Positions 3,001 to 49,477 of a stretch of DNA of 64,000 nt are shown here, in pieces. Position 1 is the first letter of the stretch, and each line of letters begins with the position of its first letter. Origin of the DNA: Escherichia phage vB_EcoM_PTE-Eco09; the sequence record PQ306574.1, one strand, 5' to 3'. The position numbers and the translations under genes are program-made. The notes under the pieces are model-generated. The model had not been told where the DNA came from. It made no database searches and worked only from the letters and a program-made list of their open reading frames with translations.

Positions 3001-3758
3001 TTGGTTGCGGTTAATCCGTCAAGGTCTGTAGTCTGGATCATGTCGCCATTGTTGGCAAACTTAGGAAGCACTAAGGTAATATTACCCAACGAACTACGAC
3101 GAAATACCTGATCACCATTCTGCATTTGAATAGCATCAATCGCTGGCTGTGCGTACACACCGCGTGGCTCTGTTCCTGTCTGATAAACATGCCAACGATT
3201 ACGAACAAAGATGAAATAGTTCATTGCATACGGGGTAGTGCAATACCATTTTCGGTTGTACACATTACCGTTATGGTAAAACTCATGTCCTGTACTCAAA
3301 AACGATAATTCGTTAACACCACACTTGCCACCGATATCTTTTACTGTTATAGTGTCTCCCTCTGCTGGTTTAGTTGGCATAGAGAAAGTCAAGTTTGCAA
3401 ATTGACCATCTGCTGCGATATAATCACCAGACTGTAAAGGAGTATCACCGGAAGTTGCTGCAATATAATCCCAACGTGGGTCCGTGCGCAGTGCTTGCCA
3501 TTTAGTCGGGTCAAAATCACCTGCTGGCTTTGTGATATCTTCTTTTGCATAATACGGACGGTTTTGATAGATTGTAGTTCCGTATTGATCATAACCGCGA
3601 GTTGTGTCATACTGAGTAATGCCATTATGGTAATTGAAAAATTCAACGTTGACCGCATCCGTTGATGTGTTTTTATCTGCGTATGCTACATTGACGACCT
3701 TTTCATTACCAGCGTCAAAGCCAAATGTGGCCTTGAAATGTTGAGAAAAATCTGCCAT
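18..3758 (-). CDS. 34: long tail fiber proximal subunit (gp34-like)
   Basis: 1246-aa ORF; motifs IGGKxGVN, LPKFANNGD, ENLWRLWDGD, VQFPKRSEYP and C-terminal ...NVKIIANNLTRTVDFIWED match the T4 gp34 pattern as recalled; divergent from rnh as in T4. Confidence 0.85.
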   Translation of the reverse strand: MADFSQHFKATFGFDAGNEKVVNVAYADKNTSTDAVNVEFFNYHNGITQYDTTRGYDQYGTTIYQNRPYYAKEDITKPAGDFDPTKWQALRTDPRWDYIAATSGDTPLQSGDYIAADGQFANLTFSMPTKPAEGDTITVKDIGGKCGVNELSFLSTGHEFYHNGNVYNRKWYCTTPYAMNYFIFVRNRWHVYQTGTEPRGVYAQPAIDAIQMQNGDQVFRRSSLGNITLVLPKFANNGDMIQTTDLDGLTATNHVTVKVHEHAEEQSIGTSGLKEIIGKRSGHGVFIFDKTENLWRLWDGDQSVRLKPIINDTRLQPNSYVAVFGGRDVTLTLPTNVEPGDRIQVSMQYMHGNQTCRIITSEEDTKILMQKNMVQFPKRSEYPFNGTDTWTGVSELSFNAANDYVPYLEFSYSEGDDGKKYWLVAHAHPIVERVDPTRKDRVGVIALATQTETNKNHEENPSDEVAVTPKMLSNKTANETRRGIARIATQAETHQDTGSNFLDDVIVTPKKLNDCVATEARRGVMEIATQHETNEGLDDTRAITPKKLEERRASEDLAGIAEIVQVGGSAAARRGEAGTGIYNINDHAKIVTPQNINEVKATETSRGVGYLATDAEVQGATESTPQDALLITTRTLTKRTATESRTGIAEIATQEETNLGQSDNHIITPKKLHTRRATETLHGLAEIATQPEFDAGRDDDRISTPLKIKTFFENAQRLKVDPTQGLNLTGDLWQGIMISGLDATEDTKGVAKVATTQLTDAGQDDTTIITPKKLQGKKATEGKEGIIRVGTHAETVAGIMDNVAISPKNFKYVVQTEDTWKATEARRGFLKVATQENCFVGDNLQGSTQELGNYQHDGIAVTPKGLNYALANFLPKMATAQNSLKLGNVEASKWARRDIDQTIESNYTFNKNVNVKGDLECLKSGSFETLSVTKNSTDVPSNGHLVLGDRGVDGHTGITLHGTTASEGMKNSWSIIVGGTGTAQVVDSDAISFGKINDGGVVEHYAFAMKHNGDATAYRDFIAGRNLYAKQGGLYIVDQSNPAMTRSPDGTLNIGHGGSVNIKAGSQTLTTEIAGQKYQIVHAGNADEVLNRRFVKNAGDTMVGKLTMDNAPIVSVKHEASAATAPAIGNIGFWNMRVTTQNIKETYPEKKNGTLMQWGTDADGLTQLWSPDGTHKHYIRSGTGGQWTAWGEIYTKQNKPTAQEIGAVVAEGGLMNSMTVRDWIKVGNVKIIANNLTRTVDFIWED

Positions 3759-5526: not shown

Positions 5527-6126
5527 ATGAAAGAACTTGAATTAAAATACTATGCACACTCACAAATTGGCGTCGAAACCATCTGTGATTTGTGGGTGGC
5601 AATGTATGACGGGTACAATCTCTTAGACCGAGATAACATATTAAAACACGAATTTTATTATGATACCGAAGATCATGCGCTACGTCAAAAAGGAATTTAT
5701 GCACGACTTGACTGTAGAAAATCAGAGATCATGGTCAAAATGGGTGATAATGAATCTGGACTATTCAACCGCGAGGAAATGACATTTTCAAATTGGGATG
5801 AGTTCGTCCATTTTATTGATAGTCTAGGGGTAAACTCCGACTATATCACTGCAATAATGCAAGTAATGACATATCGCAAGTCATTGACTCTAGATATGGG
5901 TTGTGGTATAGTGGAAATGTGCAAAGACACTTTCTATTATGGCAAAGTAGGCGAAGGATTGGGAAACACTGCTCATTATGAACTTGAGTTCGAGTTAAAA
6001 TCAGGTGATGAAAAAGCACTTGACATTATCCGAGAAATGATGCTAGAATATGTTGGTGACGATTTAAGTCCTAGCGAAATTTCAAAAGCTGAACGTGGTT
6101 TTCAATTAATGACGAAAGAGGGTTAA
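5527..6126 (+). CDS. CYTH-like (triphosphate tunnel metalloenzyme) domain protein
   Basis: 199-aa ORF beginning MKELELKYY (ExExK signature) with C-terminal acidic HYELEFELK motif; inserted between rnh and dsbA-like gene relative to T4 order. Confidence 0.45.
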   Translation: MKELELKYYAHSQIGVETICDLWVAMYDGYNLLDRDNILKHEFYYDTEDHALRQKGIYARLDCRKSEIMVKMGDNESGLFNREEMTFSNWDEFVHFIDSLGVNSDYITAIMQVMTYRKSLTLDMGCGIVEMCKDTFYYGKVGEGLGNTAHYELEFELKSGDEKALDIIREMMLEYVGDDLSPSEISKAERGFQLMTKEG

Positions 6127-6131
6127 ATATT

Positions 6132-6407
6132 ATGACTGAACAGAAAAAAGAAAAAGTAGTATTCGATGAAAATGTACACGGAAATACCCTGGCACAACTG
6201 ATTAAAGAAGCCAGCGATCAGAAAACCATTCAAGAAGCATATGGCGATAAGATCAAAGAGATCAAACAGCGTGCTAAAGAAGAATTAGGCGTAGATGGTA
6301 AAATGTGGGGCATTCTGTTTAAACTGTATCACCAGCAACAGCGCGAAACCTTCGAAGCAGAACGCGACGAAGCGGTAGAACTCTATGATCGGGTGTTCAA
6401 TGCTTAA
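6132..6407 (+). CDS. dsbA: DsbA-like dsDNA-binding protein (by synteny)
   Basis: 91-aa basic/acidic ORF in the position of T4 dsbA between rnh and 59; assignment by size and synteny only. Confidence 0.35.
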   Translation: MTEQKKEKVVFDENVHGNTLAQLIKEASDQKTIQEAYGDKIKEIKQRAKEELGVDGKMWGILFKLYHQQQRETFEAERDEAVELYDRVFNA

Positions 6408-7404: not shown

Positions 7405-8373
7405 ATGTTTAAACGCCAAGATTCTTCCAAACTGCAAGCTCAACTGGCCGCACTGAAAGGTGGCAACGGTTTCTCCAAAGAAGATCCGAAAGAGTGGAAG
7501 ATTAAGACTGATGCAGCAGGTAACGGTGAAGCCCTGATTCGCTTCCTGCCGTCTAAGACAGAAGACGGTCTGCCGATTGTGAAACTGGTAAACCATTCCT
7601 TCAAAGTTAATGGCAAATGGTATTGGGAAAACTGCTCCAGCACCCACGGTGATTTTGATTCTTGCCCTGTGTGCAAATATATTAACGAAAAAGACTTGTA
7701 CAATACCGATAAAACCGAATGGCAACTGATTAAGCGTAAAGCGTCTTACTACGCAAACATTCTGGTACTGAAAGATCCTCAAGCACCAGAAAATGAAGGT
7801 AAGGTATTCAAATTCCGCTTCGGTCAGAAAATTTATGATAAGATCGTTGCAATGGTGAACGTGAATACCGATATGGGCGAAGTTCCGGTCGATGTAACTT
7901 GTGTGTTCTCTGGTGCTAACTTCCTCCTGAAAGCTAAGAAGGTTGATAAACACCAGAACTATGATGATTCTCGTTTCATGCAGCAATCACAGCTTCCGAA
8001 AATTGAAGACGAAGCATATCAGAAATATCTGATGGAAAACATGGTTGATCTGAGTGAGATTGTAGCGCCTAGCCAGTTTAAACCGTTCGATGAACTGGAA
8101 ACCAAATTTAAGAAAACTATGGGCGTTTCTATGGTAGCTGGTGCTGCGGCTTCCAGTGCTGCGGCAGCGATTAACAGCCAGCTTGACGATTTTGACGCAC
8201 AGATGAATGCATTCGATTCTGGTATGACCGCAGCTAACACTGTAGTTGGTATTAACGCAGCTAGCACGGCGTTAGATTCTTCCGCTGATGACCTGATGGC
8301 ATCTCTGGACCTGGGTGGCGGTACTTCCTCCGCTTCTGATCTGGATGATCTTGACGCTCTGTTAGGGATGTAA
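7405..8373 (+). CDS. 32: single-stranded DNA-binding protein gp32
   Basis: Strong match to recalled T4 gp32 (LPSKxEDG, VNHxFKxNGKWYxExCSSTHGDxDSCPVCxYI, [29 protein letters not shown]); ATG at 7405 preceded by SD AAGGAA. Confidence 0.95.
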
Positions 8374-46064: not shown

Positions 46065-46796
46065 TCACCTTTTAACAAGTTTTCCAAGAACAAAACCATC
46101 AGGAGGGGTGTCACCGCGTTTCACGACCTTATTAACTACCCCGTTGTTATACCACTTACTACCAGTATGAAAATCGTTAAGCCTTGCTACACGCTCGGCG
46201 AGAGCACCGGACTCACGATCCTTTTGGACTTGTCTTAGACACATTTCCCTGTTAGCGGCTTTGCGTTCCTCCGTCCATTCTATATGGTCCCACCCAACAT
46301 GTAAATTACCCTTGACGAATCCGTCAGGTGGAGTTTCTCCATCTCGAACTCGTATAGATTTAACACCGTCGTTGTACCATGTGCTGCCGGAAACACTATC
46401 TCGCATACCTACTATTGCTTTTTTTAGTTTTCCAGTTTTCATATCACGTTCTACGCGCTCTTTGGCAGAAGAAGACATTTTAGCGCGTACAGAGTCTGAG
46501 TATACCTGGTCTCCGTCATAACGACCGCCAGTAACTACATTATAATAATTGGGATCTTTTACAATGTCAACAGTGACAAGTTCTTTTTCGTATAGGTAAG
46601 CATCTTGCTCGGTATCAAACATTTTTAATATGCGCTTCTCGAAGTTCTCAATGCCATATTTTTCAAATGCAGCACGAAGAAGGTCACCAGACCCCATATA
46701 TCCATCATGCATATTGTTAGTAGAATGTTTACCTATATACAATTTGCCGTTTACAAGATTCTTTATCTCATAAACATAATGAAATCTTTTAGCCAT
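46065..46796 (-). CDS. GIY-YIG homing endonuclease (Seg-like)
   Basis: N-terminal FHYVYEIKNLVNGKLYIGKHS GIY-YIG motif; C-terminal repeated DNA-binding modules (GSTWYNDGVKSIRVRDGETPPDGFVKG / GSKWYNNGVVNKVVKRGDTPPDGFVLG). Confidence 0.75.
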   Translation of the reverse strand: MAKRFHYVYEIKNLVNGKLYIGKHSTNNMHDGYMGSGDLLRAAFEKYGIENFEKRILKMFDTEQDAYLYEKELVTVDIVKDPNYYNVVTGGRYDGDQVYSDSVRAKMSSSAKERVERDMKTGKLKKAIVGMRDSVSGSTWYNDGVKSIRVRDGETPPDGFVKGNLHVGWDHIEWTEERKAANREMCLRQVQKDRESGALAERVARLNDFHTGSKWYNNGVVNKVVKRGDTPPDGFVLGKLVKR

Positions 46797-46868
46797 AGTA
46801 AAAATCTCCGTATGCAATAAATACAGTATACAAATATTTATACAAACACCCCCAATCAGGAGAATAAC

Positions 46869-47597
46869 ATGTTTGATAAAGAATATTTCGAAGAACTCCG
46901 CGCTATTGCGGCGTCCGACGACAAAGAATCACAGAAAGCCACTAAAACAGAATTAGCGGACTACGCAAAACAATTTGATATAAAGGTCAAAAAGACGCTC
47001 TCGCTAGAGAACATGATCGAGTTCGTAGAAACAGAATTAACTAAACTGGCTTCCGAAATGGAAGAAGAAACTCCGGCAGAAGGAACCAGTATTAACGATC
47101 TTATTCTGGCAGCAGACACCGCAGATGATAAAGTGGTATTCGACGAAGTTGATCCGTCTCTGGTTGAAGCAATGAAAGAACCAGAACAAAAAGAAGAACC
47201 AATTACAATTGAAGTTGTAGAAGAAGCCAAACCACACACAGTACCAGTTACAATTGAAGTTGTAGATGTACCGGAAGTTAAAGTGGAATCTCCGGTAGCC
47301 AACCTTTTCTCTGACGAAGCAGATCATCGTTCCCCAGCACATGACACTGATTCATTTTGCGATCTTACTGGCTTCCGTCCGACCATTTGCTTGATCGGTG
47401 GCGGTCGTGGTTACTACTCCTGCCCGTGGTGGATTTTCGACTGGATCGTTAATACTCCAGATTGGAAGAAGTATCCAGAGCGTTTCCCGCACGCGTATGT
47501 ACACGACACCCTCAAGTCACTGATCTATTATATCAAACGCGATGGGTCTGTCAAGGTGCGAGAGACTAAACATAGCCAATTCCACACACTCAAGTAA
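46869..47597 (+). CDS. acidic repeat protein with Hoc-like C-terminal WW(I/V)FD motif (possible Inh-like capsid protein)
   Basis: 242 aa; internal repeat PITIEVVEEAKP/VPVTIEVVDVPEV; C-terminal GYYSCPWWIFDWIVN resembles Hoc C-terminal IGWWVFDEIVK; occupies the inh position between uvsW side and hoc. Confidence 0.4.
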   Translation: MFDKEYFEELRAIAASDDKESQKATKTELADYAKQFDIKVKKTLSLENMIEFVETELTKLASEMEEETPAEGTSINDLILAADTADDKVVFDEVDPSLVEAMKEPEQKEEPITIEVVEEAKPHTVPVTIEVVDVPEVKVESPVANLFSDEADHRSPAHDTDSFCDLTGFRPTICLIGGGRGYYSCPWWIFDWIVNTPDWKKYPERFPHAYVHDTLKSLIYYIKRDGSVKVRETKHSQFHTLK

Positions 47598-47862
47598 TTT
47601 TTGGGTGATAAAAGTTGTGAAATATTTGTTATAATTTTAATTGTAGTTCCGTTATGCAATTAAAAAGAGGATACTACATGTCTAACAAAATCAATGTATT
47701 ACATCAAACAGAACAAATACCCAGACGAGATCGATACTATTTCGGCCTCGTTGCATCACTATTCTAATACTCATGTATTGGAATCTCGCAATGGTTATCT
47801 GGTTGATGGCAATCAACTATTTCAATTAATTAAATTCGGATTTTCTATGGGAGTGGCTTTAT

Positions 47863-49077
47863 ATGGCTTTCACAGTATCAATTAAATCTGACAAAAGATG
47901 TTTTCTTGCTGGAGATGGTTTCACCTTAACGGCGACTGTAGCGGGTGACGAACCATTACCCAGCAATTTGACATATACATGGACAAAAGACGACCAACCA
48001 CATGAAAATAGCACAGCTACGCTATCTGTAGTAGGTGCAACAAGTGAAAATGCGGGTAGCTATAAAGTAACGGTACAGGATACCGATACGATGGAATCAG
48101 TAGAATCTGAAGTTTTCCTCATGGAAGAAGCTGAATTAATCGTAAATATCACCGAACCGCAGCATTTCTACGTATCATCACAAACAGACGTAGAATTACA
48201 TGCAACAGTAAAATTTTCTGGTGGGAAGACTCCAGCAGACAACTATGAACTACATTATAGTTGGAGTAAGGGCGAAGACGTTATAGACACAACACAGGAT
48301 ATTACGATCCAAAAATTTACAGCAGATAAAAACGGCGTGTATACTGTAAAAGTGTGGGGTGAGTCGGAAGATTCAGCCGCTAGCGCATCGACTAAAATCA
48401 TGCTGGCAACAATGAACGTAGATCAGGATGTGGTGGAATCAAAGACCGTGGCACTAGGTAAGGAGATCTTACTTAATTATGTTGTGTCAGAGGACATTGT
48501 AGGCGATTCTAGCGGTATGCCTAAATTGACGATCAAACATAACTGGTATTTGCAGCGCGAAGGGCAACCGTCACCGACTCTGATCGGTAGTGAGGACGGC
48601 GAAGCACTGGAAGGATTTTCTATCATGCCAGACGGTCATCTGTTCAAAGAGAGTGCTACTTACGATGACACAGCCAAATTCTGGTGTGTTGCTAAACTAT
48701 ATCAACAGATTGAAGATGAACCAGTAGAAGTTGCAACAAGTACAAGTAGAAAATGTTCAATGGAAGTTGTTAAAATGTTTCGTTACGTACACCCGATCCC
48801 GTGGCGCAAAACTTCATTTATCTACATTGGATGGTGGGTATTTGACGAGATTGTTAAATTCAATGAGGCTGGGTTAGAGTGGCGTGACCGAGAAGTTTAT
48901 TCTACCAGCAAGTACGCCAAAGATCTGGAGACAATCGCGGCAGCGGAAGAAAAATATAGTGATTGCACTTGCATGGAATCTCGCAATGGTTTCATGTATC
49001 ATTCCAAAGAGTTACATAAACTGGACCGAGATACGTTAGAGCGAGTTCTACGCATTCGTGAAACGCATCCTGCTTAA
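47863..49077 (+). CDS. hoc: highly immunogenic outer capsid protein Hoc
   Basis: Ig-like repeat signatures (LTYTWTKDD...AGSYKVTVQD) and C-terminal capsid-binding region matching recalled T4 Hoc (YVHP.P.R.S..YI.GWWV.DEI.K..E.G..W......ESRNG...H). Confidence 0.8.
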   Translation: MAFTVSIKSDKRCFLAGDGFTLTATVAGDEPLPSNLTYTWTKDDQPHENSTATLSVVGATSENAGSYKVTVQDTDTMESVESEVFLMEEAELIVNITEPQHFYVSSQTDVELHATVKFSGGKTPADNYELHYSWSKGEDVIDTTQDITIQKFTADKNGVYTVKVWGESEDSAASASTKIMLATMNVDQDVVESKTVALGKEILLNYVVSEDIVGDSSGMPKLTIKHNWYLQREGQPSPTLIGSEDGEALEGFSIMPDGHLFKESATYDDTAKFWCVAKLYQQIEDEPVEVATSTSRKCSMEVVKMFRYVHPIPWRKTSFIYIGWWVFDEIVKFNEAGLEWRDREVYSTSKYAKDLETIAAAEEKYSDCTCMESRNGFMYHSKELHKLDRDTLERVLRIRETHPA

Positions 49078-49088
49078 TGAAATCTATC

Positions 49089-49115
49089 AGCCATCCTTCG
49101 GGGTGGCTTTTTTGT
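49089..49115 (+). terminator. intrinsic terminator after hoc
   Basis: GCCATCC-TTCG-GGGTGGC hairpin (UUCG loop) followed by TTTTTTGTTTTT. Confidence 0.7.
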
Positions 49116-49124
49116 TTTTAGTGC

Positions 49125-49152
49125 TTGACAGAGCGATTTAGATGCCTATAAT
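49125..49152 (+). promoter_or_regulatory. sigma70-like promoter (TTGACA-16-TATAAT)
   Basis: TTGACA 49125-49130, TATAAT 49147-49152. Confidence 0.5.
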
Positions 49153-49279
49153 GGCACGCATCGACATGCTACTGTCCATAGTGAGGCGAATAAAATATTA
49201 TGAATATGGGGGTTGAAATGGCGTTGATAACTGTTACTGTATTATTCGTTGTTGTGTTTATGAATGTATGAGGTGAAGT

Positions 49280-49477
49280 ATGAATGAGATTGTACGATTG
49301 ATCAAAGAAGCACCAATCGAGATGTATTTTCTGGCTTTGGTTGCAACAATGGTCTATCAGCTAGTCGCATGTCATGTGTGGAAGTCGGAAAATGCTTTTA
49401 TCCGGTTTTTTGGTACTGTCATGATCCAGTTTCCGGTACTGATCACTATCCTGTTAATCGTCAATGGGGCGAAGTGA
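49280..49477 (+). CDS. hypothetical small membrane protein
   Basis: 65-aa ORF with two hydrophobic segments. Confidence 0.4.
   Translation: MNEIVRLIKEAPIEMYFLALVATMVYQLVACHVWKSENAFIRFFGTVMIQFPVLITILLIVNGAK

Follow-up and report, generated by a model that had tools for sequence, protein, structure and literature searches.

Hoc proteins of T4-type phages are held on the capsid by a C-terminal anchor, a sheet that docks in the groove at the hexamer centre (Fokine et al. 2023, PMC10385173). That study named Tyr293, His295, Tyr304, Trp306, Trp309, Trp310, Gln354 and Tyr360 as contacts, paired His299 and Arg300 with gp23 Asp336, and described a loop, E355-S-R-N-G359, that touches all six subunits. 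It surveyed 650 homologues of the anchor domain and highlighted fusions to parts other than Ig-like domains, with second Hoc-like proteins and such fusions exemplified by the 1174-aa and 314-aa Hoc of Muldoon and the anchor–GDSL lipase of PG7; Inh, the product of the gene that adjoins hoc, was never mentioned. Here we analyse inh, hoc and the DNA between them in a 64,000-nt stretch of Escherichia phage vB_EcoM_PTE-Eco09 (PQ306574.1, the whole stretch being called the window; the genes lie at 46,869–49,077). A sequence-only reading had noticed that a 242-aa protein upstream of Hoc ends in a Hoc-like block and that a short open reading frame (ORF) between the two resembles the Hoc C-terminus. 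We conclude, with a probability of roughly 85%, that both are explained together: the 242-aa protein is Inh, carrying a Hoc-type anchor as an old paralogue, and the short ORF is the scar of a large second hoc gene.

The locus is the inh–hoc late-gene block of an RB49-like, T4-type Krischvirus, with the order uvsW, Seg-like endonuclease, inh, remnant and hoc. Megablast with 46,700–49,300 returned 58 phage records at 90–99% identity, all of them Krischvirus, including RB49, Phi1, JSE and ECD7. The RB49 genes are collinear (uvsW; inh, RB49p169; a 65-aa hypothetical ORF, RB49p168.2; hoc, RB49p168) and the ORFs of the window correspond to them. The record of RB49p169 carries the remark 'similar to T4 lip and hoc.1'.

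Inh and its C-terminal domain

The 242-aa product of 46,869–47,597 (plus strand, as are all features below unless stated) is Inh, a member of a conserved T4-type family and not a decaying copy of Hoc. It corresponds to RB49p169, is annotated 'minor head protein, inhibitor of prohead protease gp21', matches phrog_1051 over its full length (residues 1–242, E 1.7e-74) and keeps the synteny uvsW–inh–hoc. Homologues at 85–95% identity carry PF26097 (Phage_Inh_N) and PF26098 (Phage_Inh_C) in precomputed Pfam annotations; our own Pfam scan, run with a library copy that lacks these two entries, gave no match and detected no Ig or PKD domain in Inh. The AlphaFold2 (AF2) model of the whole protein falls into three parts: an N-terminal helical domain (residues 1–65, 46,869–47,063; helices 4–14, 19–34 and 46–65; pLDDT about 80), an acidic, disordered linker (residues 67–159, 47,067–47,345; pLDDT below 50) and a C-terminal domain, Inh_C (residues 160–242, 47,346–47,594; pLDDT above 90). 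Inh is therefore not a Hoc, and only the anchor domain is common to both; three helices and a disordered linker stand in place of the string of Ig-like domains that precedes the anchor of Hoc.

The N-terminal domain is nearly invariant within Krischvirus, and the linker of about 95 residues is the only part of Inh that varies among strains, being rich in indels. The protein had been described beforehand as an acidic repeat protein. Its acidity is clear (pI 4.66 for the whole protein, 4.05 for residues 63–164) and the linker holds one exact direct repeat of 19 nt, located by string search at 47,203 and 47,248, encoding ITIEVVE and VTIEVVD; Tandem Repeats Finder detected no tandem array in inh, and the description is right only in a limited way.

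The family is widespread. At a permissive E-value limit of 10, tblastn with Inh_C gave matches in 1477 phage records, and an exhaustive profile search of 1.84 billion representatives gave 107 clusters (50% identity), nearly all of 160–280 aa with the domain at the C-terminus; the three-part architecture is therefore a stable family trait. A search of viral contigs for related loci returned two close relatives only. Short-query protein searches (83 aa; profile) returned only short proteins, namely E. coli inh fragments and four Inh_C fragments, so inh and hoc genes from 12 further T4-type phages of different genera were taken from annotated phage records. Over an identical phage set, mean column identity is 60% for Inh_C and 44% for the C-terminal domain of Hoc. 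The Inh_C consensus reads PWWIYDWI..NPDWK...TLKSLIYYI.RDGSV.IRETRNSSF; in the window, residues 181–195 are GYYSCPWWIFDWIVN.

The 404-aa product of hoc (47,863–49,077) is an ordinary Hoc, with three Ig-like domains (residues 1–304) and a C-terminal anchor (residues about 305–404, 48,775–49,074) in which the WW motif and the ESRNG motif are both found, as had been read from the sequence (IGWWVFDEIVK and ESRNG). Residues 1–304 match the crystal structure of RB49 Hoc (PDB 3SHS, E 1.2e-187), residues 297–384 match the C-terminal domain of T4 Hoc (E 3.2e-15), and the protein is assigned to phrog_1149 (E 2e-81) with Ig and PKD matches in Pfam.

Inh_C is homologous to the capsid-binding domain of Hoc, on the evidence of profiles, reciprocal hidden Markov models (HMMs) and predicted structure. 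Alignments of the two domains were matched by hhalign with a probability of 97.7% (E 2e-12, 59 columns). In a pool of 1531 ORFs, drawn from the window and all loci, the Hoc C-domain HMM found every Inh at E 4.9e-9 to 7.4e-5 (1.2e-5 for the Inh of the window), with noise starting at E 0.9; reciprocally, the Inh_C HMM retrieved Hoc proteins (E 7.7e-10 to 0.26) before noise set in at E 1.9. All cross-family matches are in identical register, and the register is unchanged in a search of the Inh_C profile against all PDB sequences, where the top match is T4 Hoc 300–359 (E 0.23).

The AF2 model of residues 150–242 (pLDDT 87.2) has a four-stranded sheet and two helices, as in the C-terminal domain of T4 Hoc in 8T1X. 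A Foldseek search of 350,542 PDB chains gave a single credible match, 8t1x_X, which is that domain bound to a gp23* capsomer (probability 0.98, TM 0.59/0.58, 84 columns); the remaining matches had probabilities of 0.10 or below. In BFVD, ranks 1–5 were Inh proteins and ranks 6–30 were almost all Hoc or outer-capsid proteins. Sequence identity between Inh_C and Hoc is only about 15–19%. Sequences between the two families exist: Aeromonas phage 50AhydR13PP has VPYWIHDWM in Inh and VPYWVHDWM in Hoc, and in P0242, a member of the family retrieved by the exhaustive search, GYWIIDEI resembles Hoc and RESRNSRF resembles Inh. The Hoc-like block at the end of the 242-aa protein lies where the sequence-only reading had placed it, its significance coming from profiles and structure. 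The relationship is an old paralogy of neighbouring genes, with Inh under strong purifying selection, and involves no decay and no recent copying.

The 178-aa Hoc proteins of Aeromonas phages 50AhydR13PP (locus L012, 5262–5798) and avDM9-HANS (locus L016, 4264–4800) have an unusually Inh-like anchor. Both show VPYW[VI]HDWM and a 4-residue deletion after helix 1, as in Inh, and score E 8e-10 and 3e-8 with the Inh_C HMM. This suggests an intermediate form or a domain exchange between the adjoining inh and hoc genes.

Pieces of inh also occur in E. coli chromosomes. A Krischvirus inh piece, corresponding to 46,909–47,430 of the window, is present in 17 of 5426 complete E. coli genomes at 82–94% nucleotide identity. 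It spans the linker and the start of the C-terminal domain (7918–8373 of locus L020); left ends are of three kinds, and the right end, at the boundary between the W187 and W188 codons, is common to all. The piece forms part of a 133–151-aa 'hypothetical protein' (a cluster of 281 members) inside a prophage end, beside a serine recombinase and near ycdY/csg. PADLOC and Pfam gave nothing convincing for this protein. The acidic-linker variants differ between the E. coli copies, mirroring those among phage inh genes, which suggests repeated exchange or repeated capture. The idea that the piece had moved with a homing endonuclease like the Seg-like gene of the window was rejected, as the neighbouring CapR/T5orf172 protein is unrelated.

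The short ORF between inh and hoc

A 63-aa ORF resembling RB49p168.2 lies at 47,694–47,885. The sequence-only reading had picked out ESRNGY within it; the motif is present, at 47,781–47,798, and the likeness to the Hoc tail is significant. BLASTP against Hoc residues 349–387 gives 14/39 identities (36%, E 2e-8), the Hoc C-domain HMM scores the ORF at E 8e-11 in the same set of 1531 ORFs, and beside its own phrog_32100 there are secondary matches to Hoc-like families at their extreme C-terminal end (E 2.9e-6).

With the 63-aa ORF as query, tblastn matched Krischvirus genomes only, and in six records (JK32, Brandy, SSG23, SFHK24, G2248 and UPWr_E1) the match is the 3′ end of a 2541-nt gene between inh and hoc. 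This 846-aa gene is intact in JK32, G2248 and SSG23, and the JK32 annotation lists it as a second 'head outer capsid protein'. The protein that it encodes carries several Ig-like domains and a full Hoc anchor (...RYVHPIPWRRTSFQYQGYWVLDEI...HVLESRNGYLVDGTQLF).

Alignment to JK32 finds both ends of the large gene in the window. The 5′ remnant (47,598–47,709; collinear with 3502–3611 of the JK32 locus, L002) comprises the upstream intergenic DNA, the Shine-Dalgarno sequence AAGAGGA (47,665–47,671) and the ATG at 47,678 with about 11 codons, reading MSNKINVLHQT where JK32 has MSDKINILHQT. Fused directly to it is the 3′ remnant (47,710–47,862; aligned with about 6003–6169 of the JK32 locus), which retains the last 36 codons at 47,715–47,822 (KYPDEIDTISASLHHYSNTHVLESRNGYLVDGNQLF, that is KYPDEI...ESRNGYLVDGNQLF). 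About 2.4 kb of the JK32-type gene is missing and the two pieces are mutually out of frame, so that reading from the native ATG at 47,678 gives MSNKINVLHQTEQIPRRDRYYFGLVASLF and then a stop codon. The TAA stop of JK32 is CAA in the window (47,823–47,825), so the Hoc-like frame continues into hoc; in JK32 and G2248 a terminator hairpin comes after the large gene, and in the window this hairpin has lost 12 nt and the spacer is degraded.

An intermediate state is seen in Phi1/ECD7-type genomes, which keep 36 codons of the 5′ end and thereby have a 54-aa ORF168.1, with 76% identity (E 4e-16) between the Phi1 ORF and the first 34 residues of the large Hoc of JK32. The type shared by the window and RB49 equals the Phi1/ECD7 type minus a further 75 nt between two CAGAA repeats. 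The reconstruction is that the ancestor had a second, large hoc of 846 aa, with a string of Ig-like domains and an anchor, in the inh–hoc interval. A deletion inside this gene, out of frame and about 2.3 kb long, led to the state still seen in Phi1/ECD7, and the 75-nt deletion between the CAGAA repeats to that of RB49 and the window.

Judged from this alignment, the 63-aa ORF is a scar of the deleted second hoc, a pseudogene fragment and not a mini-Hoc, since in the joint alignment the 3′ remnant covers only helix 2 and strands 3–4 of the anchor and lacks strands 1–2 and the WW helix. The ORF would encode at most half an anchor domain and most likely yields no functional protein; it is most likely no gene, just a chance frame across the deletion junction. 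A complete anchor, a translation start of its own and an ORF conserved among relatives are all missing. An origin of the ORF as an old 3′ end of inh, which YYIK in both might suggest, was rejected: BLASTP against Inh gave nothing, and MYYIKQ is the out-of-frame 5′ end of the large hoc.

The proposal in the sequence-only reading that a capsid-binding module had been duplicated and had decayed therefore fits the 63-aa ORF, with the amendment that a whole 846-aa hoc was lost through an internal deletion; it does not fit Inh, whose C-terminal domain is conserved, more so than that of Hoc. The ancestry of RB49, from which the crystallised Hoc came, includes a phage with two Hoc fibres, and gain and loss of decoration proteins are therefore recent and ongoing in Krischvirus. 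Elsewhere, the hoc of phage CC31 (locus L008, 3786–4597) is annotated as hoc-A (40 aa) and hoc-B (232 aa); the gene is apparently frameshifted or split, a further sign of rapid turnover at this locus.

Possible capsid docking of Inh and alternative explanations

The joint alignment and hhalign place Inh W187-W188 (47,427–47,432) on T4 Hoc W309-W310, at the start of helix 1. T4 Hoc E355–N358 map onto conserved Inh positions, and Inh has an aromatic residue at the position of Hoc Tyr304. The loop aligned with ESRNG, between the last two strands, is RETRNS in most Inh and RETKHS in Krischvirus, including the window (residues 231–236, 47,559–47,576), where E is kept and the other positions change from S to T, R to K, N to H and G to S. 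The RDG motif had been considered as the counterpart of the ESRNG loop and was rejected, as the joint alignment puts RETKHS there. By alignment, then, Inh appears to keep the two most conserved capsid-contact elements of Hoc, the Trp-Trp pair and the E-(S/T)-R-N loop.

In the docking model, Inh_C would attach to the gp23 shell, either where Hoc sits at the hexamer centre or close by, and tether the acidic linker and the N-terminal domain to the prohead or head. We give docking on the gp23 lattice through Inh_C an even chance, because the WW and loop elements that are kept are those that contact gp23* in Hoc, and because the design, an anchor, an acidic tether and a small distal domain, parallels that of Hoc.

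Several observations weigh against these readings, some bearing on the role of Inh and others on its relationship to Hoc or on the short ORF. Classically, Inh is labelled 'inhibitor of the gp21 prohead protease', an annotation inherited from T4 genetics of the 1970s. Several annotators call the 63-aa ORF a gene, it has its own PHROG, and low-level translation is possible. The Hoc C-terminal domain of 8T1X was itself modelled partly with AlphaFold, so that the structural match is not fully independent of prediction. In the joint alignment, Hoc Tyr293, His295, Arg300 and Trp306 have no counterpart in Inh; the region of the Y-x-H-P motif of strand 1 and of Arg300 reads F-x-P...G-x-x-x-G-Y, with no equivalent of the His or the Arg. 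More distant members of the Inh family lack the WW motif. The exhaustive Inh_C search, with a shallow profile and harsh library-wide E-values, retrieved no classical Hoc at a library-wide E of 1e-3 or below, and the relationship is therefore remote. A KEGG-style scheme places inh among the head-internal proteins (PMC13072308).

The strongest alternative accepts the homology and changes the partner. Inh_C would be a true homologue of the Hoc anchor, re-purposed to bind elsewhere than at the outer gp23 hexamer centre, for instance to the protease gp21, to proteins of the scaffold or core, to the inner surface of the shell or to the gp24 vertex. The historical annotation and the head-internal placement fit a protease inhibitor; the four missing contact residues point the same way, as do the charge of Inh_C, which is basic (pI 9.4) where the Hoc C-terminal domain is near neutral, and the presence of Inh in phage Assk, where no hoc adjoins. 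Set against this, what enterobacterial Inh retains, the WW and E-S/T-R-N elements, is precisely what contacts gp23* in Hoc, and the architecture of anchor, long acidic tether and small distal domain is again that of Hoc. We consider re-purposing somewhat short of even odds. A primary paper on Inh function, or one describing a gp21-inhibition assay, was not found in the accessible literature.

A bolder version of docking is that Inh is not primarily a soluble protease inhibitor, and would instead be a nearly universal protein of T4-type phages that occupies the gp23 shell alongside Hoc, displaying a hypervariable acidic tether from a Hoc-type anchor. We regard this as doubtful. At the hexamer centre, Inh and Hoc might then compete or succeed one another, the unexpanded prohead, to which Hoc is unable to bind, being one setting for Inh; alternatively, Inh might use a related site. 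The gp21-inhibitor phenotype would become an indirect consequence of shell binding, and the proposal would account for some Hoc sites being empty in wild-type T4 (Fokine et al. 2023, PMC10385173).

Far less probable is that the 63-aa ORF encodes a functional small protein under selection in RB49-type phages, for instance a mini-Hoc fragment that modulates Hoc binding. A frame of 63–65 codons is open in about 40 database genomes at 97–100% amino-acid identity, and it has been annotated as RB49p168.2 and forms phrog_32100. These genomes are 96–98% identical overall, and conservation of the ORF is therefore uninformative. The strong Shine-Dalgarno sequence serves the ATG at 47,678 in the other frame; the ATG at 47,694 has none and, relative to the 5′ remnant, is in the wrong frame. 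The first seven residues come from that out-of-frame remnant and the last 20 from read-through of former intergenic DNA, so neither end is Hoc sequence. What remains lacks half of the anchor, and in Phi1/ECD7-type genomes the frame is different, with the 54-aa ORF168.1 and a 46-aa ORF starting at TTG.

Already disfavoured, and a shade less probable again, is that the resemblance of the Inh and Hoc motifs (WW-x-F-D-x-I-V, R-x-G) is coincidental or convergent and the C-terminal regions unrelated. Within the window, BLASTP aligns only eight residues of Inh and Hoc, WWIFDWIV and WWVFDEIV, at E 0.056, which is non-significant alone; the 'Hoc-like' PHROG match of Inh is weak (E 0.08); Pfam keeps Phage_Inh_C apart from Hoc, and the Hoc proteins at these loci carry only Ig-type matches; and classical Hoc was absent from the exhaustive search. 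Coincidence is contradicted by the 59-column hhalign match, by reciprocal HMM matches in one register and well clear of noise, by a predicted fold for which the Hoc C-terminal domain is the single credible PDB match and Hoc the next family in BFVD, and by the intermediate sequences of 50AhydR13PP and P0242. Compared by alignment, the C-terminal segments share motifs that are not coincidental. The least probable alternative, likewise already disfavoured, is a gain: an Ig array inserted into an ancestral short form would have produced the 846-aa gene, as the presence of that gene in only 6 of the 58 Krischvirus records and the known plasticity of hoc regions (Arbiol et al. 2010, PMC2839356) might suggest. 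Against this, the short forms hold both the beginning of the large gene (Shine-Dalgarno sequence, ATG and either 11 or 36 codons) and its end (half of an anchor) in pieces that are mutually out of frame and so form no functional precursor; a CAGAA direct repeat flanks the nested difference of 75 nt, as is typical of deletion; and the stop codon and terminator are degraded in the short form.

Gene neighbourhood and comparison with known systems

No plus-strand terminator was found between inh and hoc. A strong terminator-like hairpin lies directly 3′ of hoc (49,089–49,108) and is followed by an early-type promoter (49,125–49,152), a perfect match to TTGACA-16-TATAAT that begins 17 nt past the hairpin. 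On this pattern inh, the remnant and hoc form a single transcription unit, closed by the hairpin. Together, hairpin and promoter resemble a 'PeSL' (promoter-early stem-loop) cassette, a type of element linked to the plastic hoc locus by Arbiol et al. (2010, PMC2839356). On the minus strand, at 47,554–47,527 inside the 3′ end of inh, there is also a perfect sigma-70 consensus (TTGACA-16-TATAAT with extended TG); the total of promoter-like matches across the region is not above shuffle expectation. Between uvsW and inh is inserted a gene for a 250-aa SegE-like GIY-YIG homing endonuclease (46,065–46,817, minus strand). The endonuclease segment is common to only 3 of the 58 Krischvirus records (G5211, FL20 and AV108) and is absent from RB49.

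Inh and Hoc are both known families, and what is added here is that Inh is a new and very widespread member of the proteins with a Hoc-type anchor. A statement of the shared domain was not found in the accessible literature; most older T4 literature lay outside that search, and the link may have been published. To our knowledge, Inh is absent from current T4 head parts lists and is among the least understood conserved genes of the T4-type head region. A Hoc-type anchor as its most conserved part offers a testable structural link for such a protein, and is relevant to T4 display and vaccine platforms, which assume that Hoc is the sole occupant of the 155 hexamer-centre sites.

Compared with T4 Inh (lip, hoc.1; PF26097, PF26098; PHROG 1051), the protein of the window is alike in full-length family membership, position between uvsW and hoc and three-part architecture. 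It is essentially no different, a strain-specific linker variant with the ITIEVVE/VTIEVVD duplication.

The scar corresponds to DNA that has been named before. Phi1 'ORFan168.1' and RB49 ORF168.2 are the same DNA as 47,598–47,862 of the window. The former was given as a Phi1-specific orphan near the plastic hoc, and both stand as orphan ORFs in that account (Arbiol et al. 2010, PMC2839356); here they become the two ends of a deleted large hoc. The value of this explanation for long-standing orphan ORFs is local, the object being an ordinary pseudogene.

With the Hoc C-terminal domain (PDB 8T1X, 5VF3), Inh_C shares the predicted fold, the WW pair and, as it appears, a loop of the E-(S/T)-R-N type. 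Like that domain it is C-terminal behind an acidic exposed portion, and inh directly adjoins hoc. Inh differs from Hoc in having a helical domain and a disordered linker in place of the Ig-like domains, in lacking the YxHP strand and Arg300, in the RETKHS loop of the window where Hoc has ESRNG, and in a binding to gp23* that is predicted only. The earlier suggestion of a second protein with a Hoc-type anchor and a different displayed part is borne out for Inh at the level of homology and architecture.

The closest parallels to such a second carrier are Muldoon and PG7. JK32-type Krischvirus, like Muldoon, encode two Hoc proteins (846 aa and 408 aa), and Inh, if it binds the capsid, would be another case of the non-Ig cargo seen in PG7. 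In the window, by contrast, the second Hoc is reduced to a scar, and Inh is far more widespread and more divergent than those lineage-specific fusions.

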